NCBI GenBank assembly: GCA_036268405.1
Contig: DATAUF010000121.1
Coordinates: 9,086-73,085, forward strand
Source: Mycobacteriales bacterium
Lineage (GTDB): Bacteria > Actinomycetota > Actinomycetes > JAFAQI01
Length of the DNA: 64,000 nucleotides
Direction: 5' to 3'
Part shown: positions 27,603 to 43,095 of the stretch, piece by piece
How positions within the stretch are numbered: the stretch's first letter is position 1
How the letters are laid out: each line of letters begins with the position of its first letter
The notes under the pieces: model-generated
What the model was told of the DNA's origin: nothing
Database searches by the model: none
The model's input: the letters and a program-made list of their open reading frames with translations, nothing else
Program-made: the position numbers and the translations under genes

Positions 27603-27676
27603 TCACGGACCATAAGAGCGCCAGACACGCGCGGCAAGGGTGGTCGGATCAGGCGCCTCGGCGTAGGCTAACTCGT

Positions 27677-30355
27677 GTGACCTCACTAAAACAACTGAGT
27701 AAATCCAGTTATGTGGTGGTCGGCGGCGGCGCGGCGGGGACGTTGGTGGCGACCCGGTTGCTGGATGAGTCAGCCCGGCGACACCTGCCGATGAGGGTCG
27801 CAATCGTCGAGTCGCGCGACTCGATCGGGCGTGGCGTTGCCTACTCCGCCACCGACCGGCGCCACACGCTCAATGTTCCTGCCTCGAAGATGTCGGCGTA
27901 CCCGGAGGACGCCGATCACTTCTTGCGGTGGCTCGCGGCGCATGGTCGCGAGGTTGGGGAGTACGACTTCGTTCCTCGACGCTGGTACGGCGAGTACCTC
28001 GAAGACGTACTGGGAATCGCGACGCGACGCGCGACTGCCGCGGACCTGCACGTGGTCCAGGACCGCGTGATCGACATCGAACGCGTGGGCACCCGGTGCC
28101 GGGTGTTCCTGGCTTCCGGAACGGAGCTGGCTCCGGCCGATGGCGTCGTCCTCGCGCTTGGTCACCTTGGGATCGGCACGGAGTGGGCGCCGTCATCACT
28201 GCGGGATTCGTCTCGATTCATCGCAGACCCGTGGCCGCCGGGGGTGCTCGAAACAGTTGACGATGACCAGGATGTCCTCTGCGTCGGCGCGGGCCTCACC
28301 ATGGTCGACGTCGTTGCTGCGCTCGACCGGCCGGGCCGCGCCATTCACGTTGCCTCGCGTACCGGACATCTTCCGCGCCGTCACGCTGACGAGCTGCTGC
28401 CCGTCATGGAGGCACCGGAGTTCTCCTCGGATGCGCCGGGCCTCGCTGAGCTGCGAGCGGTGATGGCGTCACATCTCGGGAAGGCCAAGCGCCGCTACGG
28501 CAACTGGCGGCCGGCCGTCGACAGCATCCGCGCGATCACCCCGAAGCTCTGGGACGGTCTCGGCGCGGACGACCGCGTTGAGTTCATGGCGCGGGATGCG
28601 CGGGCGTGGGACGCGGCTCGTCATCGCATTCCGCCTGCGGGCGCTGAACTGGTCGCGGCGGCGCGCGACGCAGGGCGACTCGTCTCGGTGACAGGTGAGG
28701 TGGTCGGCGCGACGGAATCCTCGTCGGGGATTGCCGTCGAGCTCACCGACGGCACCGTTCGTACGGTGGGAGCCGTCGTCAACTGCACCGGCCCTTGTGA
28801 CCGGCCCGAGCGCAGCGCGGATGCGTTTGTCGGCGCGCTCCTTCAGCGTGGGCTCGTCCGTCCCGGTCCGCTCGGAATCGGCTTCGACACCTGCCAGGAC
28901 GGGCGCGTGCTCGACCGATCGGGGGAGTCCTCCGCGGCGGTGTTCACTCTCGGCGCGTTGCGAAAGGGCTCGCTGTGGGAGTCAACCGCGATGCCCGAGA
29001 TCCGGGTGCAGGCGGCCGAGCTCGCCCGATGTCTCGTCGGGCCGGCGGTCACCAATCCGGTACGCCCTCGCGATCAGTACGGCCTGGTCGTGTCGACCAC
29101 GGCCGATGCGGCCGACATGTGGCGGCAGGCTCTCGATCGGATCCGCAGGGTGCAGTCCGGCGGGCCCGAGCTGCTGGCTGCGGCAGTCGAGGTCGATCCG
29201 GCCTTCGCGCTGGGACATGCCGCGCTCGCGTTGCTCGCTCGTGAATGCGAGGCGGAGGTTGACGCGCTCGGCAGCCTTTCGGCTGCGGTCGACGCGCTTC
29301 GTCTGCGTGCCGACCCCCGGGAGATCAGCTTCGTGCGGATGGTCGAGGCACGCCTCACTCAGACAACGGCCGAGGGCGATCGCGAGCTGCTCCGTCACGT
29401 CCGGGAGTACCCGACGGACTGCCTCGCGGTAAGCGTCGCCCTGCCGACCATCGCGTTCAGTGGCGTCGCGCAGCCACTTGAAGACGCCTGGCACCTGGTC
29501 GATGTGCTCGCACCGGCGTACGGCGACGACTGGTGGTTCAACAGCCTCGTCGCCTTCACGCGACAGGAGCAGGATCGCTTCGCCGAGGCGGATGCGTTCG
29601 CGGGGCGTGCGCTCGACGCCGACCCGGCTGCGGGCCACGCCGCGCACGCGCGCGCCCACGTCACGTACGAGACCGGTGACCACGGCGCGGGCCTTGCCTG
29701 GCTGGACGCCTGGATCGCCGAGCACGGGGACGATACGAACCACCGGGCGCACTACGCATGGCATGCCGCGCTGCATGAGATCGCGATGGACGACGTCGAT
29801 GCGGCGTTGCGTCGCTATCACTCGCAGCTGGCGCCGCCATTCGTCACCGGCGCGCGGGCGCTCGTCGACTCAGTGTCGCTGTTGTGGCGGCTGCGGATGC
29901 TCGGGGTACCGGTCGGCGTAGATGATGTGCGTCCGGCGCTGGCGGCGGTTGACCGGTGCGTCTTCGACCGACCCGCCACTCTCTTCACCGCTTTGCATGC
30001 GGCGATCGGCCTTGCCGCCGTCGGCGACCTTGGTGCGCTCGGCCGGCTCGAGTCGTTCGCCGCCGACCATGAGAACCGCTCCTTCGCGATCGCGGTCGTC
30101 CCGCTCTGTCGCGGCCTTTCCGCGGTCGCTGGCGGGCGACCTGCCGATGCTGTTGGACCCCTTGCAGCGTTGCGCGTGATGGGCTTGCGCCGGTTCGGCG
30201 GCAGCGCGGCGCAACAGGAAGTCGTCGAGGAGACGCTGCTTCACGTGCTCGTCGCCTCCGGGCGGCAGCCGGAGGCCGCGGCATTGATCGGTGAGCGCCA
30301 TGCGCGGCGCGGGTCGCCTCTGGACGCTTCGCGGCTGGTTGCCCTGAAGCGGTAG
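27677..30355 (+). CDS. FAD/NAD(P)-binding protein (COG4529-like) fused to a C-terminal TTC38-like TPR domain
   Basis: Start set at GTG 27677 so the Rossmann strand YVVVGGGAAGTLVATRLLDE is N-terminal. The upstream 87 codons of the track ORF are Arg-rich and antisense to the previous gene. C-terminal ~380 aa are helical repeats (DPAFALGHAALALL..., HYAWHAALHEIAMDD...). Confidence 0.6.
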   Translation: MTSLKQLSKSSYVVVGGGAAGTLVATRLLDESARRHLPMRVAIVESRDSIGRGVAYSATDRRHTLNVPASKMSAYPEDADHFLRWLAAHGREVGEYDFVPRRWYGEYLEDVLGIATRRATAADLHVVQDRVIDIERVGTRCRVFLASGTELAPADGVVLALGHLGIGTEWAPSSLRDSSRFIADPWPPGVLETVDDDQDVLCVGAGLTMVDVVAALDRPGRAIHVASRTGHLPRRHADELLPVMEAPEFSSDAPGLAELRAVMASHLGKAKRRYGNWRPAVDSIRAITPKLWDGLGADDRVEFMARDARAWDAARHRIPPAGAELVAAARDAGRLVSVTGEVVGATESSSGIAVELTDGTVRTVGAVVNCTGPCDRPERSADAFVGALLQRGLVRPGPLGIGFDTCQDGRVLDRSGESSAAVFTLGALRKGSLWESTAMPEIRVQAAELARCLVGPAVTNPVRPRDQYGLVVSTTADAADMWRQALDRIRRVQSGGPELLAAAVEVDPAFALGHAALALLARECEAEVDALGSLSAAVDALRLRADPREISFVRMVEARLTQTTAEGDRELLRHVREYPTDCLAVSVALPTIAFSGVAQPLEDAWHLVDVLAPAYGDDWWFNSLVAFTRQEQDRFAEADAFAGRALDADPAAGHAAHARAHVTYETGDHGAGLAWLDAWIAEHGDDTNHRAHYAWHAALHEIAMDDVDAALRRYHSQLAPPFVTGARALVDSVSLLWRLRMLGVPVGVDDVRPALAAVDRCVFDRPATLFTALHAAIGLAAVGDLGALGRLESFAADHENRSFAIAVVPLCRGLSAVAGGRPADAVGPLAALRVMGLRRFGGSAAQQEVVEETLLHVLVASGRQPEAAALIGERHARRGSPLDASRLVALKR

Positions 30356-30514
30356 TTCGAAACACAACAGCGCATTGACGGCGCGAGGTCCTTTGGTTGG
30401 TCCGGATTCCGGCCGCCGTTCCACTTGTCCTGTGGATAAGAATTGTTGAGATTTCTTTTGGTACCAACTGATTCAGGGCCGAAACTGTCGTACCCGGGTC
30501 GTAGGTTTCGTGGC

Positions 30515-31699
30515 ATGGCAAGCCGGTCGGTCGAGCAGCTTCGTTGCTCGGTGGGTGCGGTCCTCGGCGAGGATCCGCACGGCCAGCCGGACTGTCTGGT
30601 CCTTGAGGACACCGAGGTGTTGCTCGCCGTGCAACGTCAGCTCGACGGTGCGCTGGCCGCCCGCCTGCAGGTGATCGACGCTCGTGACGCGACCACCAGC
30701 GAACGTGGCCGTTGCACCCGGGGGTGGCTGGTTGAGGAGCTGCAGCTGTCCGGTCCCGACGCCCGCGGCCGGCTGCGGGTGGCGCGGGCCGGGGTCGCAC
30801 GCCCGGCGGTGATCGAGGCGCTGCGCGGTGGGGAGATCGGTCACGACCACGCGAAGGTGATCCTCAATTTCCTGCCCAAGCTTCCCGACGCCGACGCGAA
30901 GGACCACGCCGAGAAGCTGCTGCTGGACGCGGCGAAGGTCACCGACCCCACCACGATGACCCGTGGCCTGCGCGAGCTCGCGGACCGGTTGTGCCTGAAC
31001 GAGACCGCGGAACAACGCGCGGCGCGGCGCCACGCCGACCGGTGGCTGCGGTTCACCGAAACCTTCAACGGGATGACCCGCTTCGACGGGATGCTCGACC
31101 CGGTCCAAGCCACCATCGTGCAGACCGCGCTCGCGCCGCTGTCCCAGCGGGCCGGGGAACACGACGACCGGACCATCGGGCAACGCCGCGCCGACGCGCT
31201 CGTGGACCTCGCCACCATGGCCATGAACCGCGGGGATCTGCCCGACACCGCCGGGGAACCCACCCAGCTCGTGGTCCAGACGTTCCTCGCCGACCTGACC
31301 CGCCGCCTGCAAGCCGGCGACACCTGCCACTCCACGCTGGGCGGCACCCCGATCACCCCCAACACCGTGCGGATGCTCGCCTGCGACGCCGGGATCATCC
31401 CCGCCGTGATGGGCGGACCCTCCGAAGTCCTCGACCTCGGCCGGTCCACCCGCACCTGGTCACGCGCGCAACGCAAAGCCGCGAAACTTCGCGCGAACAA
31501 CCACTGCGAAGCCCCGCTATGCCAAGCCGCCATCGAACGATGCCAACTCCACCACGAACAACAGTGGGCCGAACACCACGGCCCCACCGACCTCGACAAC
31601 GGCATCTACCTCTGCACCTACCACCACCGACTCACCCACCACACCCCCTGGACCATCACCAGAAACCATGCCGGCAGAGTCGAGATCCGGCGGACGTAG
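30515..31699 (+). CDS. DUF222 / HNH endonuclease domain protein (mycobacterial 13E12-repeat-family-like)
   Basis: N-terminal DUF222-like (LLAVQRQLDGALAARLQVIDARD...). C-terminal HNH: NNHCEAPLC...CQLHHEQQWAEHHGPTDLDNGIYLCTYHHRLTH. Lower-GC flanks on both sides. Confidence 0.8.
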   Translation: MASRSVEQLRCSVGAVLGEDPHGQPDCLVLEDTEVLLAVQRQLDGALAARLQVIDARDATTSERGRCTRGWLVEELQLSGPDARGRLRVARAGVARPAVIEALRGGEIGHDHAKVILNFLPKLPDADAKDHAEKLLLDAAKVTDPTTMTRGLRELADRLCLNETAEQRAARRHADRWLRFTETFNGMTRFDGMLDPVQATIVQTALAPLSQRAGEHDDRTIGQRRADALVDLATMAMNRGDLPDTAGEPTQLVVQTFLADLTRRLQAGDTCHSTLGGTPITPNTVRMLACDAGIIPAVMGGPSEVLDLGRSTRTWSRAQRKAAKLRANNHCEAPLCQAAIERCQLHHEQQWAEHHGPTDLDNGIYLCTYHHRLTHHTPWTITRNHAGRVEIRRT

Positions 31700-31859: not shown

Positions 31860-32234
31860 TTAGGCGGTCTGCGTCGGAAGGCCGGCGGCACGCCAGGCTC
31901 GGAAGCCTCCGGCGAGGTCGGTGGCGCGCCAGATGCCGAGCTGCTGAAGCGCCGACGCAGCGAGACTCGACGCGTACCCCTCATTGCAGAACAGCACGAT
32001 CCACGCGTCGCACGACGCGTCGGCGATACGCGCCTCGGATGCCGGGTCGAGTCGCCACTCCAGGACGTTGCGGTCGATGACCAGAGCTCCTGGGATGAGG
32101 CCTTCGATCACCCGGTTGACCTCGGGCCGGATGTCGACGAGGAGCGCACCTTCGCGCTGCGCGGCTGCGGCTTCCTTTGGGTCGAGCCGGCGCAGTCGCG
32201 TCCGCGCGTCCGCCAGCACCTCGTTGATCGTCAC
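31860..32234 (-). CDS. Single-domain rhodanese sulfurtransferase
   Basis: GTG 32234 overlaps the CDO-like stop (GTGA). LLVDIRPE...IVLFCNEGYASSLAASALQQLG with the active-site loop CNEGYAS. Only the 3' third of track ORF 31860-32660 is real. Confidence 0.75.
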   Translation of the reverse strand: MTINEVLADARTRLRRLDPKEAAAAQREGALLVDIRPEVNRVIEGLIPGALVIDRNVLEWRLDPASEARIADASCDAWIVLFCNEGYASSLAASALQQLGIWRATDLAGGFRAWRAAGLPTQTA

Positions 32235-32770
32235 GCCGAGATCGCTCCCTGGCGGGCGGACTGGCTGTCGTCCCGGGTCGACACCGTTCGCAGCCGGGCA
32301 AGCCCGCTCGGGTGTTGCGCGTAGAACGACATTGCGGACAACGGAGGGGAGTACGCATGCAGGCTTACCGCCGCGGCCGGTCCGGCGTTGTAGACGTCGT
32401 GCACCGTCGTGGGTGCGATCGCGACCGAGTTGCCGGCGGTCACGATGGTGGTCGTCGTGTCGAGCGGGGAGTCCGGGACCGCGCGGATCTCGGTAAGTGC
32501 GCCCTGCACGACGACGAATGCGCCCGAGGATCCCCCGTGGTCGTGCAGCTCCGTCCCCTGGCCGGTGAGCCAGCCGAGCAGCCAGATGTCGGCGGTGTCG
32601 TCGCCGTGCAGCCGTCGCCACCAACGCCCGCACGCATCGAAGCGCGCCAGGCTTTGCCACTGCGACGCGCGATCGGCTAGTCGCTCGAGGACGATCGCGA
32701 GCTGGTCTGCGTCGAGGCGCGACTGAGCCGGGAGAGTCCGTGTGGGCCGTAGTCGTTGGGGGAGTGCCAT
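32231..32770 (-). CDS. Cysteine dioxygenase type I-like cupin (thiol dioxygenase)
   Basis: WLLGWLTGQGTELHDHGGSSGAFVVVQGALTE...HDVYNAG...SLHAYSPPL has the cupin His triad pattern of CDO/3-mercaptopropionate dioxygenase homologs. Confidence 0.65.
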   Translation of the reverse strand: MALPQRLRPTRTLPAQSRLDADQLAIVLERLADRASQWQSLARFDACGRWWRRLHGDDTADIWLLGWLTGQGTELHDHGGSSGAFVVVQGALTEIRAVPDSPLDTTTTIVTAGNSVAIAPTTVHDVYNAGPAAAVSLHAYSPPLSAMSFYAQHPSGLARLRTVSTRDDSQSARQGAISA

Positions 32771-32805
32771 GGCATTACTATACCATAATGCTCAAGTAAC
32801 TCTGG

Positions 32806-34197
32806 TTACTCCCGACCGGCCGTCGCTGAGACCAGATCCAGTTCTATTGCCGTCGCGAACGGGTCGTCCACCAACACGACGTCGCGGTCTGCGCGATCGA
32901 GCAGGGATGCGGCGATCGTCGCTCGGAATCCGCTTGCGCAGTGGATCCACAGGACACCTTGGGGGAGCTCGGTCATTCGCGCCGCCAGGTCGGCGAGCGG
33001 CACGTGCCACGAGCCGGGGATCGCGCCGTCACGAACGACCTCGTCCGGGCGCCGCACATCGATCACCTGCGCGCCGATGCCGAGCGCGTCCGCCAGGTCG
33101 ACGAAGGTGGCGATCGGGAAGCTGCGTCGTGGCAGGTTCGGGGCAATCTCGGCGAGATCACCGTATGCCGCCGCGGCCGGACGGTCGATCCCGATCCTGA
33201 CCAGCTGGCGCTGAGCCGCGGCGACCTGCTCAGCGGTTTCGGCAAGCAGGCTGAGCGGCTCGTCGTACGGATAGATCCATCCGAGGTACGTCGCGAACTG
33301 CGGTCCGAGCTCCACGGCGACAGTTCCGGCGAGGTGGTCAGCCGCGAAGCTGCGCCGGTCGCGGATGTCGACCACCCACTCGCCGGACGACAGCCGCTGG
33401 CCGATTTGGTCGGACCCGGCGATCTGCGGCGGACTGAGGTCCGCGGGGGGCGCGCCGGCCCGATTCCGTGGCGCCATGTGGACGTAATAGCTGGGGTACG
33501 GCGTGAAGCCGGCGATCGTACGTTCGACGAACCCGTCCTCATCATCCTCTGCGAGCGCAGCGTTGCTGCGGCGCTCGTCGCCGAGCGTGCCCGACGCGGA
33601 GTCGTGCTTGCCTGGGGGACCCGACGCGCAGAAGCTCCCGAAGCCATGCGTCGGAAACAGCCGCACCTCGTCAGGTAGAGGCGCCGTGAGCTCGCGGACT
33701 GAGCGGTACTGCGCGCGCGTCAGCTCACGGGTTCGGCTCTCATCGATCAGATCGGTGCGACCGACCGCGCCGTAGAGCAGTGAGCCGCCGCTGAACACCG
33801 CAGTCTCGCCACCCGATCCGGTGACCACATAAGAGAGGTGTCCGGGGGTATGGCCGGGCGTCGCGACCACCCTGATGTGGAGCGACCCGACCTGCAGCAT
33901 CGAGGCGTCGTCGACCGGCGTCCGCTCGTATGCCACTTCCTCGGATCGGGCGACGAGGTAGGGGACGCCAGCCGATCGTGCGAGGTTGAGCCCGCCCGTG
34001 ACGTAGTCGTTGTGGATGTGCGTCTCGCCGACCGAGCCAAGCACGAGCCCGAGCTTTCCCAGCATCTCGCTGATGCGATCGATGTCGCGCTGCGGGTCGA
34101 TCACGAAGGCGATTTCGCCGTCGTGCACGACGTAGCTGCGGTCGCCCAGCTCGTCCGTGCGGATCGTTTCGACCCGCAGGCGTGGTCCGCCGTTCAT
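32806..34197 (-). CDS. Persulfide dioxygenase (ETHE1/MBL fold) fused to rhodanese domains
   Basis: ETHIHNDYVTG (HxHxDH variant), ATPGHTPGHLSYVV, and C-terminal rhodanese modules (VVDIRDRRSF..., VIDVRRPDE...LWIHCASGFRATIAASLL with a catalytic Cys loop). Architecture resembles PDO-rhodanese fusions such as CstB/Blh. Confidence 0.8.
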   Translation of the reverse strand: MNGGPRLRVETIRTDELGDRSYVVHDGEIAFVIDPQRDIDRISEMLGKLGLVLGSVGETHIHNDYVTGGLNLARSAGVPYLVARSEEVAYERTPVDDASMLQVGSLHIRVVATPGHTPGHLSYVVTGSGGETAVFSGGSLLYGAVGRTDLIDESRTRELTRAQYRSVRELTAPLPDEVRLFPTHGFGSFCASGPPGKHDSASGTLGDERRSNAALAEDDEDGFVERTIAGFTPYPSYYVHMAPRNRAGAPPADLSPPQIAGSDQIGQRLSSGEWVVDIRDRRSFAADHLAGTVAVELGPQFATYLGWIYPYDEPLSLLAETAEQVAAAQRQLVRIGIDRPAAAAYGDLAEIAPNLPRRSFPIATFVDLADALGIGAQVIDVRRPDEVVRDGAIPGSWHVPLADLAARMTELPQGVLWIHCASGFRATIAASLLDRADRDVVLVDDPFATAIELDLVSATAGRE

Positions 34198-34214
34198 CTG
34201 TCCTCGCTCGTCTT

Positions 34215-34228
34215 GTGACCCAGGTCAC
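34215..34228. promoter_or_regulatory. Candidate operator in the divergent promoter region (GTGACC-CA-GGTCAC)
   Basis: Perfect 6-bp inverted arms with a 2-bp spacer, 18 nt upstream of the PDO-rhodanese start. It lies in the 141-nt spacer shared with the SBP56-like operon. The rest of the spacer is AT-rich (gctatatctaatcc). Confidence 0.3.
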
Positions 34229-34338
34229 GAACTCGTGTCGCGGTGGTTTGGGCTGTCCGATTCGTGCTATATCTAATCCAACCCACTCAAGTTAGGTGGG
34301 ATACTGAGCAAGGTAAAGCCGACGCACGGAGGGCATGG

Positions 34339-36705
34339 ATGCGGATCCGGTTGGGAAGTTCGAGGCTGGTGGCGGCGGGCGCCGCCTTGGCGGTCGCGTC
34401 AGGCGGTGGAGTGGCCGCGGCAGCCACTGGGTCGTCGGGCAGCACGCAGTCGTTGCTCCCGACGATCACGCGGACGGTCGACCAGATCCGCGAAGCGGGG
34501 AAGACCGTGGTTGGCAGCGTCAACTACACGGTCAACGAGAAGTCGCAGGCGCGTACGACCACGACCGACAGCTACGGAAACCCGCTGCAGGGCTTGTCCC
34601 TGCAGGGGCTGCCGAGCCTGCCGGGTGTCGGTCAGGCGCTTCCGTTCGAGACCGGCAACAACACGGACCTGGACAACGAGCCATCCAGCGAGAACACCGG
34701 CGAGTGCCCCGCAGCGGGCAAAGGTCACGAGTATCTGATCGTGTGGGCCGGCAAGATGAACGCCGCCGACCTGACCGGTTCGGACATCGAGGACCTGATC
34801 GGCGGCGGCGAGGTCAACCCCGAGGGCTTGAAGTCGCAGATCCCGATCGAGTTCCTCGAGACCGGCTCGGACATGATGGCCACGATTGACGCCGAGCCTG
34901 GTTGCTCGACCTACGGCAAGGTCGTCAACGTCTCGGTTGTCAGCGGCCCCGACGGCGTCGAGAACGAGCCGCACCACATGCAGTACACGTGGTACCCCGG
35001 CCAGACCGTGTGGGCCGGTGGCCTGTTCACCTCGCGAATCTTCACCTACGACCTCTCGGACCTGCCGCAGGTCAAGCTCACGAAGATCGACGAGCCCTGG
35101 TCGACCCCGAGCGGCAGCATCTGGGACGCGTTCGCGACGCTGCCCAACGGCGACGCCTACGGCACGCTGATGGGTGGCCCGCTGTACGCATACGGCACCA
35201 CGCCGGGCGCTGTCGTCGAGATCGCCGGCAGCAACCACCCGGGAGCGCAGCCGGGCGACATCCTCGGCGAGTGGCCGGCGACCGGCTCGAACAACCTTCT
35301 CCAGGGTGCGGACACCAACGGAAACGCGGTTGGTGCCCTCGCCAAGTCGGTCGGCGGCACCGTCTCCGACCTGCCGCACCTGGTGACCAGGGGTCAGGAC
35401 GACAGCGGCCTGGACTTGAACAACGGCTCGGTCAAATGCCCGGACTTCGGCAGTTGCGCCAACCCGCACGGCATCCAGATCCGCGCCGACCTCAAGACGA
35501 TGGTGACGTCGGACTACGCCGAGCCGGCGCAGATCATCGAGGATCCGGTCAAACCGACGAATGCGTACTACTTCAGACGCACGGTGAGGGTCTGGAGCTT
35601 CAGCTCCAAGGGCTGCTCAGGAAACCCGACACCTGGCGCGACGCTGAACAACCCGAAGATATGTGCCATCGACGTGATGCCACTGGGGCCGCGTGACGAC
35701 TCGAACCCGGCTCACGGCGAGAACCTCGGCATCATGGAGAACGGCTCGACGTGGGACTACCCGCTGCCGGACGGCCGGATCCCCAAGGGCTGGTTCTCGG
35801 AAAGCATGTGTGGTGGTGCCGTCTTCTACACGCCGGACATCACCAACACCAAGAAGCACCCGTGGCACGAGGTGTTCGACTCGACCGCTGCAGTCGCGGC
35901 GCTGAAGTCGAACGGCGCAGGCAAGGTTCCCGGTGGCGGCGACCTGAAGAACGAGCCAGCCGGCTGTGACGGTGCGGCGTGGGACGTGGTGAGCCCTGAC
36001 AACCGGTTCCTGGGTCACGCGGTCAACGGCCGTTACATCCTGCAGGACGACTTCGATGACGCGGGTACGCCGAAGATGGTCTACACCCTGAGCATCACGA
36101 AGCTGCTCGAGGCCGGCGATCACTACCAGTGCAACCTGTCGGACAACATCCGGGCTCTCGCCGACCCGACGCTGGGCGGCAAGGACTGCCCGACGGTGGC
36201 CGGTGTCGTCGCGATCAATGACCCGACCTCGGGTGGTCCTCACTGGGCGGAGTTCGACAACTTCCGCCTCGCCGCGATCAAGATCAAGGACCCGAAGACG
36301 GGCAAGATCGTGACGGACTATCACGCGCCGACTCGGATCGCGGAGGCGAACTACTTCGTCGCGCGGACCGGCGTCGATGGCAACCACACGGTCTGCATGA
36401 TCAACATGAACCCGAAGACGGGAAGCCTCTCGCTCGACACCAACTTCATCGACGAGACCGAGGGCACGCCCTGCGTTCAGTTCAACCGGCGGGACTGGCC
36501 AGACCCCAACATCAAGGGCTACTACAAGCCGCACGCGATGCTCTTCGTCGAGAACGGCGCGCCTGCCACGGGCTTGACCCCCTACGGGCACTCGTACGGT
36601 CCGAACTGTGAGTTCGGCAAGGTCGTCGATGGGCAGTGCCGTGGCTACTGGGGGGAGCCCATCGACATGGGCGCCGATACGGCCGGCCTGAAGTACGAGG
36701 AGTGA
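34339..36705 (+). CDS. Secreted, enlarged SBP56 (selenium-binding protein / methanethiol oxidase)-like beta-propeller protein
   Basis: ATG 34339 lies 5 nt after GGAGGG. Signal peptide [21 protein letters not shown]. Blocks that resemble my recollection of SELENBP1: [24 protein letters not shown] vs [44 protein letters not shown] vs [34 protein letters not shown] vs [19 protein letters not shown] vs SHLYVWDW; GGPHW vs GGPQM; [17 protein letters not shown] vs VKGGLKLNPNFLVDF. 788 aa against ~470 for canonical members. Confidence 0.5.
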   Translation: [788 protein letters not shown]

Positions 36706-39536
36706 CGCGCCGCCGTCTGCGTCGGGCCGGTTCGCTGGCCCGACGCAGCGGCAGTGTGGTGCTGCTTGCCGCGGTCCTCGGACTCGCGACGGCGGCCCCC
36801 GCCGCCGCGCATCCTTACTTGCTCAGCAGCGACCCCGCGAGCGGCGCGATCCTGACGACCGCGCCGGGCCAGATCGACATCGGCTACACCGAAGGCCTCG
36901 ACCGCTCGTACTGCACCGTCGTCCTCATCGCACCGGACGGCCATCGGATCTCAACCCACCAGGCCTCCGCGGATGCCCCGACCGAGCTGTCCGTGGTCCC
37001 GGACTCTTCGCTGGCCGAGCAAGGTACCTACGCCGTGAACTGGACGGCGGTCGGCGACGACGGCCACACCGTGATCGGAAGCTTCAGCTTCAGCATCGGA
37101 CATCCTTCGGCCAACTCCGCGGTGCAGTCCGGCTCATCGGATGTCACCGGCAGTGCCTCCTCGCCACGAGGAGCGCAGCGGCTGCTGCGAACCGTCCTGC
37201 CGTTCGCATCCGTCGTCCTCGTGGCGCTGCTGCTGCTCGGCGGCGTTCTCGCCGCCACGGGACGGCGGGCGTCGCGAGTCCGATGGGGTGCGCTCGCGGT
37301 TGTTTTCGCGGTGGAGATCGCCCTTGCGGCCCTTGTCCTGTCCTCCGGCGGGCTCTCCGCCTTCGGCTCATCAGCCACCGGACGTCGGTTGATCGCGGAG
37401 CTCATTCTCACGGCCCTGGTGCTCCCCGTCGTCATCGACGGTGGCCGGCTCGCGGCCGGTCAACGCCCTTGCGGCTGGCGTCGCTGGCTCGCTGCGCTCA
37501 GTTCGCTCGGACTGCTGGTGGTGCTCGCCGACTCCGGTCACGCGGCTTCGCAGCCGAGCTCGCGCCGCGACCTCGTGCTCGCGGTCTACTCGGTTCACCT
37601 GCTGGCGGTCAGTGTCTGGATCGGCGCCCTGCTCGCGGTCATCCTCCGGATGCGATCAGGCGGCGGTGAGGCGCCGACGATGTCGACAGCAGATCCGAAA
37701 CGCTCGCTGCGCCCACTCGTTGCGGTGTCGCTGGTCGCGGTGCTCGGCACTGGGATCGCGACTACCGACTGGGGTCTGCGCACGCTCGGGGACGTCCCGG
37801 GCACCTTGTACGGCAAGCTCGCCGTCGCGTTGCTGATCTTGTTCGTCGTGATGGTCTGGCTCGGGATCGTGGGCTCGTCGATGATGCCGGCTGCCACGGG
37901 GGAGAGGAGTCGGCTGCCGCGACTCAGCGCCGCGCTGATGGGTGCGGAGGCGGTCGTCGCGGCGGCGGCGCTGCTGGTCGCGGGAATCCTTGGCCAGGTC
38001 TCACAGCCGCTCGACGAGCCGTACGCCTCGCAGGCCTATGCGACGTCGACCGGCGTACCGCTCGCCGTGACGGCGGTCGGCGCCGATTCGCTGGACGTCG
38101 CCACCCTCGCGCCCGGCATCGTCGGCCGAAACACACTTGTCGTCGAGGTGGGTCAGGCGGACGAGGACGACTTTCTCAGTCCGGCACCCGGCGTCCGTTC
38201 AGTGACGGCGACGTTGTCGTGTGGCGGATGCGGCGAGCCCGACCAGCAGGTCGCCCTTCATTCGACCGGCGGTGGTGCCGAGTGGACCGCCGACGTCTCC
38301 CTGTCCGAGGCGGCGTCGTGGCTGGTCACCGCGGCTGTGACGCGCTCGGGTGAGCGACCTGGCACCGCGCGGTTCGCCGAGCGCGTCTCGCCGGCCGAGC
38401 TTCCGCACCAGATCGTTGTCGGCGTCCCGACGTCACTGTCAGGACCGACCGGTGAGACCTGCCGTGACGAGATCCTCGGTCTCCAGGTGGCACTCGAGGA
38501 TCTCAACTCGCAGGCCGCCAACCACGGCGACCTGATCCGCGTCGTGGCGGTCGACCTGCACGACGGTGTCCCCGCGGCCATGGCGCGACTTCAGTCGCTC
38601 GGAGCCCGCCTGATCGCCTTGCCGTGCGGAACGGCGAGCGAGGTCCAGGGGGCGACAGCAGCCGCGCGCGACGCCGGTCTGCCGGTTGTCGCGGGTGCCG
38701 CGTCGATTCCTCAGGACCGCGCCGGCGTGTGGTCGACACAGCCGTCGTGGCGCGCCGAGGGCGCGGCGATCGGCACCCAGGCGCTACGCCAGCTCGCGAC
38801 CTCGGTCACCGTGCTCGTGGGCGACACGGTCGTCGACCGGACCGAGCTGGCCGGTCTGCGCTCGGCGCTGGCCGGGCGCCAGGTCGCGCTTCACATGACG
38901 GGATTCCCGTCGAAGCCGCTCCCGTTCGTCTCCGCATTGCAGCGCCACAACGCTGACGTCGTGGCGTTGCTCGGCGATCGGCATGAGGCCGCGCCGGTTG
39001 TTCACGCGTTCTCTGCGGTGTCACAGATCAACGGCTGGGTGCCTTCCCACGGCATCCTTGCGTCCGCTCAGCTGATGAGTACGGACTTCATCGACGCCGC
39101 GGGCACGATCACCAGACTCGGGGGGATCGAGTTCGCGAGCGACATCAATCCGTTCGACCCGGTGTCGCAGTACTACGCACAGCGCCTTCGCGCGCTCGCG
39201 CCCGGCGTACGGCCCTCCTTCGACGGACTGCACGGCTATCAAGCGGGTCTCGCGATCGCGCAGGCACTGCGCGATGGCGGCGGACGTCCGTCGTCGAGCT
39301 CTTTGATCAGCCTGCTCGGCAGCCGGTTCGCCAAGTTCACGGTCGGGAGCTACCGCCTCGGCTGGAATCAGACTGGAGGCACCTCGACATCGCTGGCGTT
39401 CTTTCGATCGACATACGTGAACCCGATGGCGATGCCGTCCGACACGCCTGGCGGCGCCTCAGCCCTGGCCCACGAGGGCACCTTCCTCGACAGCGGCGGC
39501 TTCGAGCAGGTCGCGCCGTTCCGGATCACCTCATGA
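36702..39536 (+). CDS. CopC - CopD - type I periplasmic-binding-protein triple fusion
   Basis: GTG 36702 overlaps the upstream stop (GTGA). The signal peptide ends AAPAAA|HPYLLSSDP, so the mature N-terminus is His as in Cu(II)-binding CopC. CopC body: GTYAVNWTAVGDDGHTVIGSFSFSIG. Then ~8 hydrophobic CopD-like segments. C-terminal ~380 aa are Peripla_BP_6-like (QIVVGVPTSLSGPTGE...LIALPCGTAS...). Confidence 0.75.
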   Translation: MTRRRLRRAGSLARRSGSVVLLAAVLGLATAAPAAAHPYLLSSDPASGAILTTAPGQIDIGYTEGLDRSYCTVVLIAPDGHRISTHQASADAPTELSVVPDSSLAEQGTYAVNWTAVGDDGHTVIGSFSFSIGHPSANSAVQSGSSDVTGSASSPRGAQRLLRTVLPFASVVLVALLLLGGVLAATGRRASRVRWGALAVVFAVEIALAALVLSSGGLSAFGSSATGRRLIAELILTALVLPVVIDGGRLAAGQRPCGWRRWLAALSSLGLLVVLADSGHAASQPSSRRDLVLAVYSVHLLAVSVWIGALLAVILRMRSGGGEAPTMSTADPKRSLRPLVAVSLVAVLGTGIATTDWGLRTLGDVPGTLYGKLAVALLILFVVMVWLGIVGSSMMPAATGERSRLPRLSAALMGAEAVVAAAALLVAGILGQVSQPLDEPYASQAYATSTGVPLAVTAVGADSLDVATLAPGIVGRNTLVVEVGQADEDDFLSPAPGVRSVTATLSCGGCGEPDQQVALHSTGGGAEWTADVSLSEAASWLVTAAVTRSGERPGTARFAERVSPAELPHQIVVGVPTSLSGPTGETCRDEILGLQVALEDLNSQAANHGDLIRVVAVDLHDGVPAAMARLQSLGARLIALPCGTASEVQGATAAARDAGLPVVAGAASIPQDRAGVWSTQPSWRAEGAAIGTQALRQLATSVTVLVGDTVVDRTELAGLRSALAGRQVALHMTGFPSKPLPFVSALQRHNADVVALLGDRHEAAPVVHAFSAVSQINGWVPSHGILASAQLMSTDFIDAAGTITRLGGIEFASDINPFDPVSQYYAQRLRALAPGVRPSFDGLHGYQAGLAIAQALRDGGGRPSSSSLISLLGSRFAKFTVGSYRLGWNQTGGTSTSLAFFRSTYVNPMAMPSDTPGGASALAHEGTFLDSGGFEQVAPFRITS

Positions 39537-40177
39537 CTGTCACGCGGTCCGGAGCCGGCTGCGCCGCGACTCTCGCATTGCTCATCACAGTCTCCGGGTG
39601 CGGCGGCGGCTCGACCCCGCTGCCGTCGCACCCGGATCCAACGTCATCGGCCACCGGCTCCTCCGCCGCGGCGCCGATCTCGACCGGCTGCTCACCGAAC
39701 CTGGTTCCCACGGGCTACACGATCGACGCGAAGCACTCCGGCAAGCTGACCGCCCACAGCTACAGCGCAGCAGCCGAGGTCCAGGCTGCGCTCGAGTACG
39801 ACCAGCTGCAGTCCGGCGCGCGAGAGGTGTTCGTGCACTCGGCCGGCCGGCGCACCGACGGCGTCGCGACCTGCGTCGCCATGCAGTTCCCCTCTGCCCA
39901 TCTCGCCGGACGGTTCTTCATGTCCTACCGAGCGCTCCGCAAGCAAGCCGGGTCGCTCGTGGCGGAGGTCTCGATCCCTGGCGGTGCAAGCGGCCTGTCA
40001 GGTGCAACCGGCTACCTCGAGAGGGACCAGTCATTCCGCGGCTACCAGATCGCTTCGACCGATGTCATCGAGTTCTCCGGGCAGGACGGGCGCAGGCTCG
40101 ACATCGTGTCGGTGGCCGGCGCGACTCCGTCGCGGAGCCTCGGACACAAGCTGCTCGTCGCGATGGCGAATCAGTGA
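39533..40177 (+). CDS. Lipoprotein, unknown function
   Basis: ATGA overlap with the CopCD-PBP stop. Lipobox LLITVSGC. Confidence 0.55.
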   Translation: MTVTRSGAGCAATLALLITVSGCGGGSTPLPSHPDPTSSATGSSAAAPISTGCSPNLVPTGYTIDAKHSGKLTAHSYSAAAEVQAALEYDQLQSGAREVFVHSAGRRTDGVATCVAMQFPSAHLAGRFFMSYRALRKQAGSLVAEVSIPGGASGLSGATGYLERDQSFRGYQIASTDVIEFSGQDGRRLDIVSVAGATPSRSLGHKLLVAMANQ

Positions 40178-40848
40178 TGAGCATCAACCGCACAGTCGCG
40201 GCCGTGATCGGCGTCGCTCTGCTGGGAGCGGTGTCCGCGGGCTGCAGCAGCAGCGGAAGCAACGGGGCCGCGGCACCGACGATCTCGCCTTCGGCCACCG
40301 GCAGCAGCCAGGTCACGCCCGCCTCCGGTCTGCCCACCCCGCTCGCCGGCTCGACCCTGACCGCGGCCGATGTGGCCGACCCAGGCCTGCCGTCGAAGAT
40401 CGGGCCGGGCAAGCTGTCGAACGCGACGATCAAGAAGCTCGTCCAGTACTTCGAGGACAACGTCGCCAAGGCGTACGCCGACGGAGATGCCAACGCGCTC
40501 GAGCACTACCTGGCGGGTCCGATGCTCTCCGGCAACCGCGCCACGATCACGTTGCTGGCCAAGCAGGACAAGCTCAACATCTTCCGGATCCGGGTGCAGA
40601 AGATCACGGCGGAGACGAACGAGGCCGAGCACGTCATCATCGACATGACCGGCGACATGGTCTTGAACTACTTCATCGACAGCAAGACCCACAAGATCCT
40701 CGAAAACGGTCTTCCCGGCCCCAGCCAGGTGCAGTTCGCGATCTTCCTCGACCGCAACCCCAAGACCAACACGTGGTACTGGACGGGGGAGCAGTCCGAG
40801 ACCACTGGCGGTGCGACGAGCGGCACGACCGTGGAGCAGGCGCCGTGA
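40177..40848 (+). CDS. Lipoprotein with NTF2/ARC6-IMS-like C-terminal domain
   Basis: TGATG junction. Lipobox GAVSAGC, Ser/Pro/Ala linker, then YLAGPMLSGNRATITLLAKQDKLNIFRIRVQKI...VIIDMTGDMVLNYF. Only the 3' part of track ORF 39598-40848 is real. Confidence 0.55.
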   Translation: MSINRTVAAVIGVALLGAVSAGCSSSGSNGAAAPTISPSATGSSQVTPASGLPTPLAGSTLTAADVADPGLPSKIGPGKLSNATIKKLVQYFEDNVAKAYADGDANALEHYLAGPMLSGNRATITLLAKQDKLNIFRIRVQKITAETNEAEHVIIDMTGDMVLNYFIDSKTHKILENGLPGPSQVQFAIFLDRNPKTNTWYWTGEQSETTGGATSGTTVEQAP

Positions 40849-41801
40849 TCTCGCATGCACCGCTAGCGGCCGCGACAGCGCTCGCCGGCTGTCTGTTTGC
40901 CGCTGCTCCCGCGACGGCGGGGACCGCGGGTCCGCCCGGTGTGCTGCAGCTCACCGGAGTGCTCCACCTGTCCAAGGGCACGTGTGACGGCGACAAGCCC
41001 GGCGGCAGCTATCTGTCGGTGACGTTCGGCACCAAGGTCATCGGCAACCCTGCGTCGAGCTGCGAGCACGGCGCGGTCACGCTGCTTTCGCCTGGTCGAC
41101 CGGGCCTGTCGACAGACGCGTTCACACCGCTGTCCGACGAGGCGTTCGACAGTCGAGGCAACCCGGTCGCCACGTCGTTGACGCAGCCGGTCCGGTTCGG
41201 ATCCCACCTGCTCAGCCTGGTGAGCTCCGGGCAGGATCTGCAGGACGCGCCGACCGGCCGGGCGACGTTCGCGTTTCCGCATCTCTACGTCACCGGGACC
41301 AAGGTCCTCGCCGATGTCCGGTCGATTCAGGCGCTCTACGACGGCGCGGCCGGGACGACGTGCGCATCCGGCGCGGGGAGTGGCTGCTGGCTGATCGGAG
41401 CCGAGCGCGCGACGGGGACGTACGACGCGCAGACACATCGGGTGACGCTGTCCTGGTTCTCCGGGCAGTCCTTCGTCCAGGAGTCGGCCGGTACCGTCGT
41501 CCACCTGTCGGGAGTGTTCGTCGGAGCCAAGCCCAAGCCGCTCAAGCGGGGCACGGCCGTCGACCTCGGCACCTCCAGCTTCGCCGCGGGACCCGCGCCC
41601 AGGTCGAACGCTCGCACGATGGCTGCTCGTCACCGGCGCGGCAGTACTCGAACCGGCGCCCAGCAGGCGACGGCATCCGCCCGCGCGGCAACCACCGCCG
41701 CGTCCTCCGGCAACCGTCGGCTCGCGGCGATCCTCGCCGCCGCCATGCTTCTCGTGCTCGCGGCGTCGCATGGCGCCGCTCTTCGTAAGGGACGCTCGTG
41801 A
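40845..41801 (+). CDS. Uncharacterised secreted protein family, paralog 1 (C-terminal TM anchor)
   Basis: GTGA junction. Family motifs: LTGVLHLSKGTCDG..GGSYL, TLLSPG, EAFDSRGN, ATGTYDAQTHRVTLSWFSG, VHLSGVF. C-terminal basic/Ala-rich linker plus TM LAAILAAAMLLVLAA. Confidence 0.6.
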   Translation: MISHAPLAAATALAGCLFAAAPATAGTAGPPGVLQLTGVLHLSKGTCDGDKPGGSYLSVTFGTKVIGNPASSCEHGAVTLLSPGRPGLSTDAFTPLSDEAFDSRGNPVATSLTQPVRFGSHLLSLVSSGQDLQDAPTGRATFAFPHLYVTGTKVLADVRSIQALYDGAAGTTCASGAGSGCWLIGAERATGTYDAQTHRVTLSWFSGQSFVQESAGTVVHLSGVFVGAKPKPLKRGTAVDLGTSSFAAGPAPRSNARTMAARHRRGSTRTGAQQATASARAATTAASSGNRRLAAILAAAMLLVLAASHGAALRKGRS

Positions 41802-42502
41802 CCTCGCAACGTCGGCTCGCCGGACTGGCCGTCACACTCGCCGTCGTTGTCGCCGGATGTAGCGGCGGGCACGGCTCGTCGAACGCGACGTCGACGAAGC
41901 TGACCGGGCTGTTCAAGATCACGCCGGGTGCCTGCGCGACGGCGAAGGGGAAGCCCACCGGCAGCTACCTCGTTGTCATCTCCGCCGCGGCCGGCAAGAC
42001 CGTGGGAAACAAGCACGGCGGATGCGTGAACCCGGCATACACGTTGTTGCGTCCCGGGGCCGACGGCGGCCTCGTCACCGGTGAGTTCCAGGACGTCTCA
42101 GGTGCGGCGTTCGACAGCCACGGCAACGGCCGGGCCAACCGGATCGTGGTGCCGACCGCCTTCGGGTCGCGGCGCTTCGGGATCGCAACGAACACCCACG
42201 ACCAACAGGGAGCCGCGAACGGTCAGCCCGCGTACCCGCGACCGGCGGCAATCGCGACCGGCTCGTCGCTACGCGTAGACCTCCGTTCACTCGTCATCAC
42301 CTACGGCGGGCCTGCAAGCTCGACCTGCGAACAGGCATTCGGGGTCGGGTGCTGGGAGCTCGGCTCGGAGAACGCCACCGGGACCTATGACGCGACCAGT
42401 GCCCACTACCTCATCAACTGGTTCTCGGGGGAGTCCTTCACGGCGAAGGGTGACTCCATCGAGGTGCACCTCGAAGGCACATTCGTCCCGCAGTCCGGGT
42501 GA
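41798..42502 (+). CDS. Uncharacterised secreted protein family, paralog 2 (lipoprotein)
   Basis: GTGA junction. Lipobox VVVAGC. Motifs: LTGLFKITPGACA..TGSYL, YTLLRPGADGGLVTGEFQ, AAFDSHGN, ATGTYDATSAHYLINWFSG, VHLEGTFVP. Confidence 0.65.
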   Translation: MTSQRRLAGLAVTLAVVVAGCSGGHGSSNATSTKLTGLFKITPGACATAKGKPTGSYLVVISAAAGKTVGNKHGGCVNPAYTLLRPGADGGLVTGEFQDVSGAAFDSHGNGRANRIVVPTAFGSRRFGIATNTHDQQGAANGQPAYPRPAAIATGSSLRVDLRSLVITYGGPASSTCEQAFGVGCWELGSENATGTYDATSAHYLINWFSGESFTAKGDSIEVHLEGTFVPQSG

Positions 42503-43095
42503 GCAGCCGCGTCGTAAGTGCGCTGGCAGCCGGCATTTTTGTCGTGCTCTGCGCCGCGGTGCCCGTCGCGGCGTTCACGCATCAGGGCCGCGCCGACGTC
42601 CCCGCTGCGCGAGTCGCGCCGCTGTCGACCGCCGATCGCAAAGCGCTCCTCGCCGCGCAGAAGCTGATTGCTGATCTGCCCGAGGCGCTCGCCGAGGTGC
42701 CACGCGCGGGCGCGGATGTCGCCGGCATCGGTCCGTCGGCCGCCCGCGCCACCCTCGGCGGCTCCGCCGAGCTTCGGCCGCTGGCCGAAGCGGTCGATGG
42801 ACGCGTGCCCGCCGTGACGTTGCTCGAAGCGTCGTATCGAGCCCTGCTCGATGACCGCCCGCTGCCGGACCCGGTCGCGTTGTCGAGTGCACTCCAGACG
42901 TTGCAGATCGTCGAAGGCGACGTGCTCCCGGCGGTGCGCGTCATTGCCTTGGAGCACGGTCGGCATGTGTCGGCGGGGGGAGCGCTCGACGCGGTCGAGC
43001 GCGACCCTGCGACATCAGCACTCGGCCGGCTGCTCGTCGACTGGCAGCAGGTCTACGGCGTCTTCGTGCTCGTCGAGCAGGCCGCTGCCCGCTGA
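42499..43095 (+). CDS. Secreted/membrane-anchored Ala/Leu-rich protein, unknown function (last gene of the operon)
   Basis: GTGA junction. N-terminal hydrophobic segment ALAAGIFVVLCAAVPVAAF. Confidence 0.45.
   Translation: MSSRVVSALAAGIFVVLCAAVPVAAFTHQGRADVPAARVAPLSTADRKALLAAQKLIADLPEALAEVPRAGADVAGIGPSAARATLGGSAELRPLAEAVDGRVPAVTLLEASYRALLDDRPLPDPVALSSALQTLQIVEGDVLPAVRVIALEHGRHVSAGGALDAVERDPATSALGRLLVDWQQVYGVFVLVEQAAAR

Follow-up and report, generated by a model that had tools for sequence, protein, structure and literature searches.

A predicted SBP56-superfamily propeller and its CopD-type membrane partner: a candidate extracytoplasmic copper enzyme near sulfur genes

We analyzed a 64,000-nucleotide stretch of a Mycobacteriales genome (assembly GCA_036268405.1, contig DATAUF010000121.1, positions 9,086 to 73,085; hereafter the window, 68% GC). 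In it, a minus-strand operon predicted to serve persulfide and thiol metabolism faces a plus-strand operon that begins with genes for a secreted 788-residue protein, here termed the propeller, and for a membrane protein with CopC and CopD domains. The most robust result of the study is that the propeller gene and a CopD-type partner gene are paired nearly universally in the genomes compared. From homology, fold, conserved ligand positions, domain content, and gene order together with its conservation, we propose that this protein of the SBP56 lineage is a copper enzyme working outside the cytoplasm, that it obtains its metal from the CopC/CopD-type partner, and that its substrate is a reduced sulfur compound; we hold this proposal tentatively and give it somewhat less than an even chance of being right.

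The propeller family is small: a HMMER scan of 1.84 billion representative proteins with the family profile retrieved 110 representatives at E-values up to 1e-30. Matches were obtained in 456 species-representative loci, of which 80 (cited below by L numbers) were fetched and their open reading frames (ORFs) clustered. Of these, 67 extend at least 1.5 kb beyond the propeller gene, and in 60 of the 67 the next gene downstream is of the CopD family, a count that overstates the number of independent events because the loci are phylogenetically related. The pair spans Actinomycetota, Chloroflexota, and Dormibacterota. The adjacency of an SBP56-like and a CopCD gene, picked out in this one genome by an earlier reading made from the DNA letters alone (the sequence-only reading), is conserved by this measure. 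In 24 loci the partner clusters with the CopC-CopD protein of the window (Mycobacteriales, Frankiaceae, Acidimicrobiia, Solirubrobacterales, Chloroflexota, Dormibacterota, and one Burkholderiales metagenome-assembled genome), and CopC itself is detectable directly downstream in about 21. The other partner type, about 600 residues long and devoid of CopC, occurs in 44 loci that are mostly from Pseudonocardiales; hhalign shows it to be homologous to the first type across CopD and the C-terminal domain (99.8%, E 1e-27).

The propeller gene starts with an ATG preceded by the ribosome-binding site GGAGGG, and its product opens with a signal-like hydrophobic stretch. Its closest relatives are encoded by metagenome-assembled Mycobacteriales, with 88-89% identity in L001 and L002; looking up its exact sequence in public assemblies returned no record. 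Since family-wide Pfam matches, fold, profile comparison, and bridging proteins agree, we assign the protein to the SBP56 superfamily as a remote member and predict a seven-bladed beta-propeller. Among 52 family members, 34 match the Pfam SBP56 model PF05694 weakly (E up to 0.01), the best at E 2.3e-7. An AlphaFold2 model built from the 52-sequence alignment (pLDDT 68.7, pTM 0.76, with a confident core) gave the SBP56 structure of S. tokodaii, 2ECE, as the top Foldseek match (E 5.4e-14, target-normalised TM-score 0.66), followed by 1JOF (E 3e-7). An alignment of R. pomeroyi MtoX, taken from its megaplasmid, with its relatives was matched by the family profile over 292 columns (hhalign probability 96.8%, E 2.8e-10). 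Proteins of about 440 residues match the family profile at 1e-27 to 1e-33 and also pass the PF05694 cut-off, with 38-74 bits. These bridging proteins (P0459, P0460, P0485, P0501, P0406, and P0480) may represent a third, likewise uncharacterised, subfamily between canonical SBP56 and the propeller family; some keep a His at the position of MtoX His141, and others have an Asp and an NPHG motif. The 788-residue protein by itself also matches part of the NCBIfam MtoX equivalog NF052453 (E 1.6e-9, residues 173-259, model positions 32-114). A direct sequence search of the 788-residue protein against the PDB returned a chance match only, and the family profile reached 2ECE at E 0.045, which is not significant alone.

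The copper ligands proposed for MtoX are His88, His89, His141, and His424 in R. pomeroyi numbering (PMC5739008, PMC10936201). In the R. pomeroyi enzyme, Cys28 is essential, and Trp223 and Trp386 are proposed to form a tryptophan tryptophylquinone (TTQ) cofactor matured by MauG (PMC10936201). We compared these residues with the propeller family using hhalign output and a 13-sequence alignment that included bridging proteins. The candidate metal ligands that are invariant in the family are H212, H213, D263, H377, H560, H635, and H732. H212 and H213 (motif NEPHH) align with His88 and His89, and H732 (KPHAMLF, against RAHIMRF) aligns with His424 in the multiple alignment. This last equivalence depends on the multiple alignment, as hhalign of trimmed C-terminal profiles gave E 0.33 only; a permissive extension of hhalign to the C-terminus produced meaningless alternative alignments and was discarded. 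H212 and H732 are invariant across the propeller family, MtoX, and the bridging proteins; H213 is invariant in the family and not in all bridging proteins. The His141 position is taken by D263, an invariant Asp in the family that is His or Asp in the bridging proteins. No conserved Cys was found in the N-terminal segment of the family equivalent to that holding Cys28, Trp223 aligns with the invariant P396, and the Trp386 position is not Trp. Further family invariants are H377 (motif CANPHG), H560, H635, and several Cys. The propeller is therefore best described, on these alignments, as a superfamily member with a rebuilt metal site and not as an MtoX orthologue. Because several of the residues that define MtoX are gone, methanethiol as the substrate and H2S and H2O2 as the products, which the sequence-only reading had proposed, are unsupported.

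The partner most likely starts at GTG 36702, where it overlaps the propeller stop codon as GTGA. Its domain order is a signal or anchor segment, CopC, CopD with about eight hydrophobic or transmembrane segments, an Ig-like linker, and a C-terminal Peripla_BP_6 domain (PF13458, E 4.6e-10, 40.1 bits). The CopC domain scores well above the Pfam cut-off (PF04234, E 6.5e-17, 62.8 bits against 23.3) and below the NCBIfam equivalog cut-off (NF033814, 62.4 bits against 95). H59 aligns with residue 1 of the mature CopC, PcoC, and YcnJ structures and the translation contains the motif D-D-G-H, so that the domain carries what by alignment is the canonical Cu(II) site of an N-terminal His and a D-G-H motif. 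The CopD region matches NCBIfam CopD (NF033808) at E 1.6e-9, with 37.8 bits against a cut-off of 195, and the orthologue of the partner in L083 exceeds the Pfam cut-off for CopD with 36.7 bits. The CopC-CopD call made from the letters alone thus stands for CopC and, with weak matches, tentatively for CopD; the start codon is most likely at 36702, and the Peripla_BP_6 domain had been overlooked. Peripla_BP_6 domains usually bind amino acids or amides. A tblastn search with R. pomeroyi queries (E up to 1e-3) found neither Sco nor MauG in the window or in the 80 loci; the reference arrangement mtoX-SCO1/senC-mauG was seen in R. pomeroyi. With CopC and CopD the only metal-handling partner in sight, the suggestion that CopCD rather than Sco is the metal partner gains support.

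On the other side of the intergenic spacer, the minus-strand operon encodes a persulfide dioxygenase (PDO)-rhodanese fusion, a cupin of the cysteine dioxygenase (CDO) family CDO_I, and a single-domain rhodanese, whose identities, already proposed from the sequence, were borne out by Pfam and PDB matches. The 463-residue fusion matches 3TP9 (E 5e-52) and S. aureus 3R2U, presumed here to be CstB (E 5e-38; residues 27-437, nearly its full length); the match to ETHE1 (4CHL) is weaker, at E 2.6e-13. Its rhodanese domain shows the loop CASGFR in translation. The protein thus has the CstB-type fusion architecture and is a predicted persulfide dioxygenase with a rhodanese domain. The cupin exceeds the PF05995 cut-off (80 bits against 23), and its closest solved structure is the bacterial cysteine dioxygenase 8QFL (E 2.2e-20). 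We assign it to the CDO_I family by sequence. The rhodanese has the catalytic Cys loop CNEGYA in translation, and its GTG start overlaps the stop codon of the cupin gene (cdo) as GTGA.

Sulfur genes recur near the propeller gene in other genomes. A PDO-rhodanese gene is present in the close clade (L001-L004, L006, and L007), directly adjacent and divergent in a clade with 42-43% propeller identity (L019, L020, and L023), and also near the propeller gene in L033 and L041. A YedE/YeeE-family transporter follows the pair in 17 loci (Pseudonocardiaceae, Kutzneria, Sciscionella, Fodinicola, and Carbonactinospora), and the other neighbours include an Rrf2 regulator in 7 loci, a SufS-like desulfurase in 6, and a CDO in 4. 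At least one sulfur-type neighbour occurs in 30 of the 59 loci of at least 12 kb, a count inflated by the kinship of the loci. The window itself has no Rrf2 or YedE-like gene by tblastn. The sulfur association is real and not universal; the link to PDO-rhodanese drawn by the sequence-only reading recurs in two separate clades, and the wider tie to sulfur holds in part.

The spacer between the two operons (34198-34338) is 141 nt long with 56% GC, falling to 48% in its conserved core, and contains the inverted repeat GTGACC-CA-GGTCAC (GTGACCCAGGTCAC) at 34215-34228; length and repeat are as previously described. The enclosing 16-nt palindrome, TGTGACCCAGGTCACG, corresponds to the CRP/GlxR-type consensus TGTGA-N6-TCACA with one mismatch, for which the chance expectation is one per 64 kb. 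The half-sites GTGAC and GTCAC are kept in L002, L003, and L007, the central 4 nt vary, and the site is absent in L001. We rejected the idea of a sulfur-specific operator, as the CRP-type consensus fits better. The palindrome looks like a generic CRP/GlxR-type site, for whose function conservation alone argues. The pattern GTGAC-N4-GTCAC itself occurs twice in the window, against 0.16 expected, the second time at 46719-46732 near the 5' end of the DUF4395 ORF. A protein with HAMP and adenylate/guanylate cyclase domains is encoded at 56316-57875 (+), and cyclase-AAA_16 proteins recur near the propeller gene in L027, L036, L054, L060, and L074; such cyclase genes may be relevant to the CRP-like site.

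Aligning the spacers of the window, L001, L002, L007, and L003 revealed a relatively AT-rich block, GTGCTATATCT..CAAC..ACTCAAGTTA.G.G, whose columns are invariant in the five loci, the remainder of the spacer having diverged. Judged from its conservation, this block probably serves the plus-strand operon as a promoter or operator. A simple sigma-70 promoter and terminator scan of the spacer found none, and an RNA hairpin in the block (CCCAC..GTGGG) was rejected, as L001 and L002 break the pairs without compensation. The block contains the motif CTCAAGTWA, of which exactly two copies exist in the 64-kb window against 0.11 expected; the other copy lies in the 35-nt spacer between the PDO-rhodanese gene (pdo) and cdo. 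L001 and L002 carry the motif at the same two positions. Because the same motif is found in both transcription units and a CRP-like site lies between them, the divergent units are probably co-regulated. In the distant clade, TAACTTGAC is found in the spacers of L019, L020, and L023 just upstream of position 10001 and at 9775-9783 of L021; it is the reverse complement of the TCAAGTTA core of the window and has the opposite orientation. It may be a shared operator half-site or merely a -35-like TTGAC.

Our proposal would work as follows. The propeller would be exported and, outside the membrane, would take copper from the CopC/CopD partner at a putative His/Asp site in its centre; it would then oxidise a small reduced sulfur compound such as a thiol, sulfide, or polysulfide. 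Sulfane-sulfur or thiol products reaching the cytoplasm would be handled by the CstB-like PDO-rhodanese, the thiol dioxygenase, and the rhodanese, with both units co-regulated through the shared cis motif and the CRP-like site. What we infer here is that the metal is copper, that the protein is an enzyme, that its substrate contains sulfur, and that the two units are co-regulated. Several results weigh against the proposal. The sequence-only reading had named the lack of a significant PF05694 match for 34339-36705 as a refutation of its idea, and formally this is the outcome: the protein scores 12.5 bits where the cut-off is 34, at E 0.061 and confined to residues 177-215, so that the label "SBP56-like" holds as remote homology, through fold, hhalign, and bridging proteins, and fails at the Pfam cut-off; against the NCBIfam equivalog NF052453 the score is 36.7 bits with a cut-off of 650. 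The CopD domain of the window's partner falls short of its Pfam cut-off (PF05425, E 4.7e-4, 20.9 bits against 32.1), and CopC/CopD proteins generally figure as agents of copper uptake or resistance and not as proven metallochaperones. In about half of the large loci the nearest 10 kb hold no sulfur gene, and those from Chloroflexota and Dormibacterota combine a full CopC-CopD partner with no PDO or other sulfur-type neighbour. The relatedness of the loci lowers the number of independent events behind every locus count, and the database names of family members are all "hypothetical protein" or "secreted protein".

Other explanations were weighed against the same evidence. A true methanethiol oxidase, isofunctional with MtoX and SELENBP1 and loaded with copper by CopCD in place of Sco, would agree with a remote MtoX homologue that keeps the His-His pair and the C-terminal His, with the partial NCBIfam MtoX match (E 1.6e-9), with one carrier being Pseudonocardia sulfidoxydans (L054), and with the adjacent PDO-rhodanese, given that MtoX yields sulfane sulfur that is removed by a persulfide dioxygenase (PMC10936201). 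We nevertheless consider such an enzyme very unlikely: Cys28 has no conserved counterpart, Trp223 has become an invariant Pro, Trp386 is gone, and His141 is replaced by an invariant Asp. Neither mauG nor SCO1 was found in the window or the 80 loci, the equivalog score stays at 36.7 of the required 650 bits, and with H377, H560, H635, and several Cys as extra invariants the site looks remodelled. The propeller might instead be part of a copper acquisition or homeostasis module, binding copper or freeing it (for example from its complexes with thiolate or sulfide) and handing it to CopC/CopD, in which case the sulfur genes would be incidental or only indirectly connected. The CopD-type membrane protein is the sole universal partner, YcnJ-like CopC-CopD fusions act in copper uptake, about half of the loci lack sulfur genes, and the operon is rich in secreted proteins and lipoproteins with no obvious redox partner. 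We regard this module as unlikely, although less so than the methanethiol oxidase, since neighbours linked to sulfur or chalcogens come back in three or more unrelated arrangements (a divergent PDO-rhodanese, a YedE/YeeE-like transporter downstream together with Rrf2, and a SufS-like gene upstream), far above the approximately 1% that a rough, uncomputed estimate gives for a one-to-three-copy gene within 10 kb. A shared motif also ties the PDO operon to the propeller operon, and the SBP56 relatives of known function are enzymes.

Handling of selenium, or of chalcogens in general, would have the propeller bind or convert selenium species outside the cell and the YedE-like transporter, the SufS/selenocysteine-lyase-like enzyme, and the rhodaneses process them inside. 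Selenium binding is known from the superfamily's founding members, the transporter found downstream fits the selenium-linked YedE/FdhT model (140-177 bits) better than TsuA (71-88 bits), and the SufS-like proteins also match the selenocysteine lyase SclA at E 3.7e-25; however, the YedE/FdhT, TsuA, and SclA scores are all below the curated cut-offs. PDO, CDO, and a CymR-like Rrf2 regulator are indicative of sulfur, a YedE-like gene is missing from the window, and neither selD nor selA was noticed in the loci, where no systematic search for either was made. The chances of this explanation seem slim to us. They seem equally slim for a propeller enzyme or binding protein that has nothing to do with copper or sulfur, such as a Zn-, Fe-, or Ca-dependent hydrolase or lactonase-type protein, for which the CopD-like partner would be a membrane anchor or another transporter and the ligand would be sensed by the binding-protein domain. 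The second-best fold match, 1JOF, is a lactonizing propeller enzyme that works without metal, Zn or Fe would also be compatible with the His-to-Asp change and the additional His, the CopD matches are weak with most partners (44 loci) lacking CopC, and Peripla_BP_6 domains typically have amino acids or amides as ligands. Yet 2ECE is a better match than 1JOF by seven orders of magnitude, the propeller has ligand positions in common with a copper enzyme, partners with a CopC domain carry the N-terminal His and D-G-H motif canonical for Cu(II), and the sulfur neighbours would be left unexplained.

A full-text literature search on SBP56 with CopC/CopD and on methanethiol oxidase, Actinobacteria, and persulfide dioxygenase found no published description of an SBP56-like/CopD module. 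A bolder form of the copper-enzyme proposal, which we consider doubtful though worth stating, is that the family is an unrecognised class of extracytoplasmic, probably multinuclear-copper propeller oxidases of the SBP56 lineage, obligately paired with a dedicated CopD-type metallochaperone and oxidising sulfide, polysulfide, thiols, or volatile organosulfur outside the cell in soil and peat Actinomycetota, Chloroflexota, and Dormibacterota. If this is true, soil sulfur (or selenium) would be turned over by a route that escapes present marker-gene surveys: these follow the oxidation of methanethiol and sulfide in soil through canonical mtoX, sqr, and sox, and the tested protein falls below the SBP56 and MtoX cut-offs. 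The family is present in at least 456 species-level genomes, with cultivable carriers that include Pseudonocardia, Kutzneria, Saccharopolyspora, Amycolatopsis, and Carbonactinospora, and a copper enzyme for reduced sulfur would add an unrecognised step to terrestrial sulfur cycling. Shorter orthologues than that of the window are encoded by Kutzneria buriramensis DSM 45791, Pseudonocardia spinosispora DSM 44797, and Carbonactinospora thermoautotrophica (LI90_2832). The near-universal coupling to CopD offers a clean genetic system for testing copper delivery by CopC/CopD to secreted enzymes, a question that also stands for copCD beside amo, pmo, and thiocyanate dehydrogenase genes. Moreover, the His-to-Asp change and the loss of the proposed TTQ residues illustrate how an SBP56 active site can be rebuilt, which bears on the disputed chemistry of SELENBP1 and MtoX.

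The features of the locus are listed in Table 1. The plus-strand operon comprises 7 genes from 34339 to 43095, with a start-stop overlap (GTGA, ATGA, or TGATG) at every junction; the sequence-only reading had its start and its first two genes right and had stopped short of the rest.

Table 1 Coordinates of the features of the locus in the window.
Feature	Position	Strand	Basis or remark
FAD/NAD(P)-binding (NAD_binding_9) protein, long C-terminal extension, start uncertain	27416-30355	+	PF13454 E 1.7e-39
Single-domain rhodanese, 124 aa	31860-32234	-	PF00581 E 2.2e-12; last gene of its operon
Cysteine-dioxygenase-type cupin (predicted thiol dioxygenase), 179 aa	32231-32770	-	PF05995 CDO_I E 2e-22
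CTCAAGTWA copy 1	32791-32799	+	35-nt pdo-cdo spacer, 21-29 nt upstream of cdo start
CstB-like predicted persulfide dioxygenase (metallo-beta-lactamase fold)-rhodanese fusion, 463 aa	32806-34197	-	PF00753 and PF00581; first gene of its operon
Palindrome TGTGACCCAGGTCACG	34214-34229		17-32 nt upstream of pdo ATG
Conserved, relatively AT-rich block	34264-34303	+	Alignment of window, L001, L002, L007, L003
CTCAAGTWA copy 2	34286-34294	+	In the conserved block, 45-53 nt upstream of propeller gene
Secreted propeller, 788 aa	34339-36705	+	Predicted remote SBP56 superfamily member
CopC-CopD-Peripla_BP_6 membrane fusion	36702-39536	+	Pfam, NCBIfam
Lipoprotein lipo1, 214 aa, function not assignable by family	39533-40177	+	No Pfam/NCBIfam match; ATGA overlap
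Lipoprotein lipo2, about 223 aa	40177-40848	+	Weak Tim44-like (NTF2-like) PF04280 E 0.0011, below cut-off
Secreted protein with C-terminal membrane anchor; paralogue 1 of unnamed beta-rich domain of about 200 aa	40845-41801	+	Alignments; GTGA overlap
Lipoprotein; paralogue 2 of unnamed beta-rich domain	41798-42502	+	Alignments; no Pfam/NCBIfam/PDB sequence match
Last overlapping operon gene, 198 aa, N-terminal hydrophobic segment	42499-43095	+	No Pfam/NCBIfam family match
DUF4395 membrane protein	46635-47168	+	PF14340 E 2.9e-33

Downstream of the pair, lipo1 is kept in other loci, including those of Chloroflexota and Dormibacterota (tblastn: L002-L007, L012, L013, and L015), lipo2 is kept in L002-L007, L011-L013, and L015, and the last gene of the operon in L002, L003, L004, and L007. 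The unnamed beta-rich domain has four paralogues in the window, the two within the operon and two more at 43138-43902 (-) and 44832-45881 (+); two are lipoproteins and two have C-terminal anchors, and they have the motifs GTYD, W..G..F, and H.xG.F in common. It has no Pfam, NCBIfam, or PDB sequence match, and its 766 database homologues are all "hypothetical". An AlphaFold2 model made from the database homologues (pLDDT 74.5) gave no significant PDB fold match, the best resemblances being weak ones to lipocalin- or avidin-like barrels.

The NAD_binding_9 family recurs near the propeller gene in L001, L002, L006, L021, L033, and L083, and the protein may be an associated component. The DUF4395 gene, also found three genes downstream of the propeller gene in L083, is possibly associated with the locus. 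Between the NAD_binding_9 and rhodanese genes of the window lies a DUF222 gene (30443-31699, +; PF02720, E 7e-34), a member of an HNH-type family common in mycobacteria. It looks like a mobile insertion, since the two flanking genes are directly adjacent in L001 and L002. On the minus strand, a 1218-residue polypeptide (20848-24504) fuses two branched-chain-type permease and two ABC ATPase domains, and is preceded by ORFs of 550 and 480 residues (24511-26163 and 26160-27602, both -) with no Pfam match. At a distance of 15-24 kb upstream are genes for an alkyl-sulfatase-type metallo-beta-lactamase protein (10249-11517, -) and an FMO-like flavin monooxygenase (17774-19258, +), making organosulfur or xenobiotic metabolism in the neighbourhood possible.

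Compared with known systems, the propeller resembles MtoX and SELENBP1 in its predicted seven-bladed fold, profile homology, secreted or periplasmic location, the motif DFLAVID...TYGKV...NE(P/A)HH, and the retained His88, His89, and His424 positions. A metal-handling gene lies directly downstream in both cases, and R. pomeroyi MtoX is functionally tied to a persulfide dioxygenase (PMC10936201), a gene for which is near the propeller gene as well. The two differ in size (about 435 residues for MtoX, compared to 788 for the propeller here and about 610 in most relatives), in the partner (SCO1 for MtoX, a CopD-type protein with no MauG for the propeller), and in the additional invariant His and Cys of the propeller. 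With the cst operon of S. aureus the locus has in common the CstB architecture of the 463-residue protein and an extra rhodanese alongside. In contrast to that operon, which has CstA and SQR, no SQR, TauE, or CstR was found among the window genes scanned; the minus-strand operon has a CDO-type thiol dioxygenase instead and is paired with the operon of a secreted propeller.

CopC-CopD fusions such as B. subtilis YcnJ (PDB 9C14) act in copper uptake, and the partner likewise has CopC ahead of CopD in a single chain, with the same N-terminal His Cu(II) site. Unlike the YcnJ type, it adds a C-terminal Peripla_BP_6 domain and is translationally coupled to an SBP56-like propeller, and most partners in the propeller family lack CopC. 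Like copCD beside the amo and pmo operons of ammonia and methane oxidisers, it adjoins the gene for a presumed copper enzyme. Thiocyanate dehydrogenase (TcDH) is a beta-propeller that releases elemental sulfur. The Thioalkalivibrio TcDH is a copper enzyme encoded beside copC and copD, with which it is co-induced (PMC5744179). It differs from the propeller locus in its Tat export, separate copC and copD genes, and fccAB electron acceptor, none of which was seen here, and no TcDH chain appeared among the PDB profile matches or the Foldseek top 50. What the two would have in common, if the role proposed for the propeller is right, is an extracytoplasmic copper-dependent enzyme that acts on a sulfur compound and adjoins copC/copD; on this analogy, the nearest functional precedent appears to be TcDH and not MtoX-Sco.

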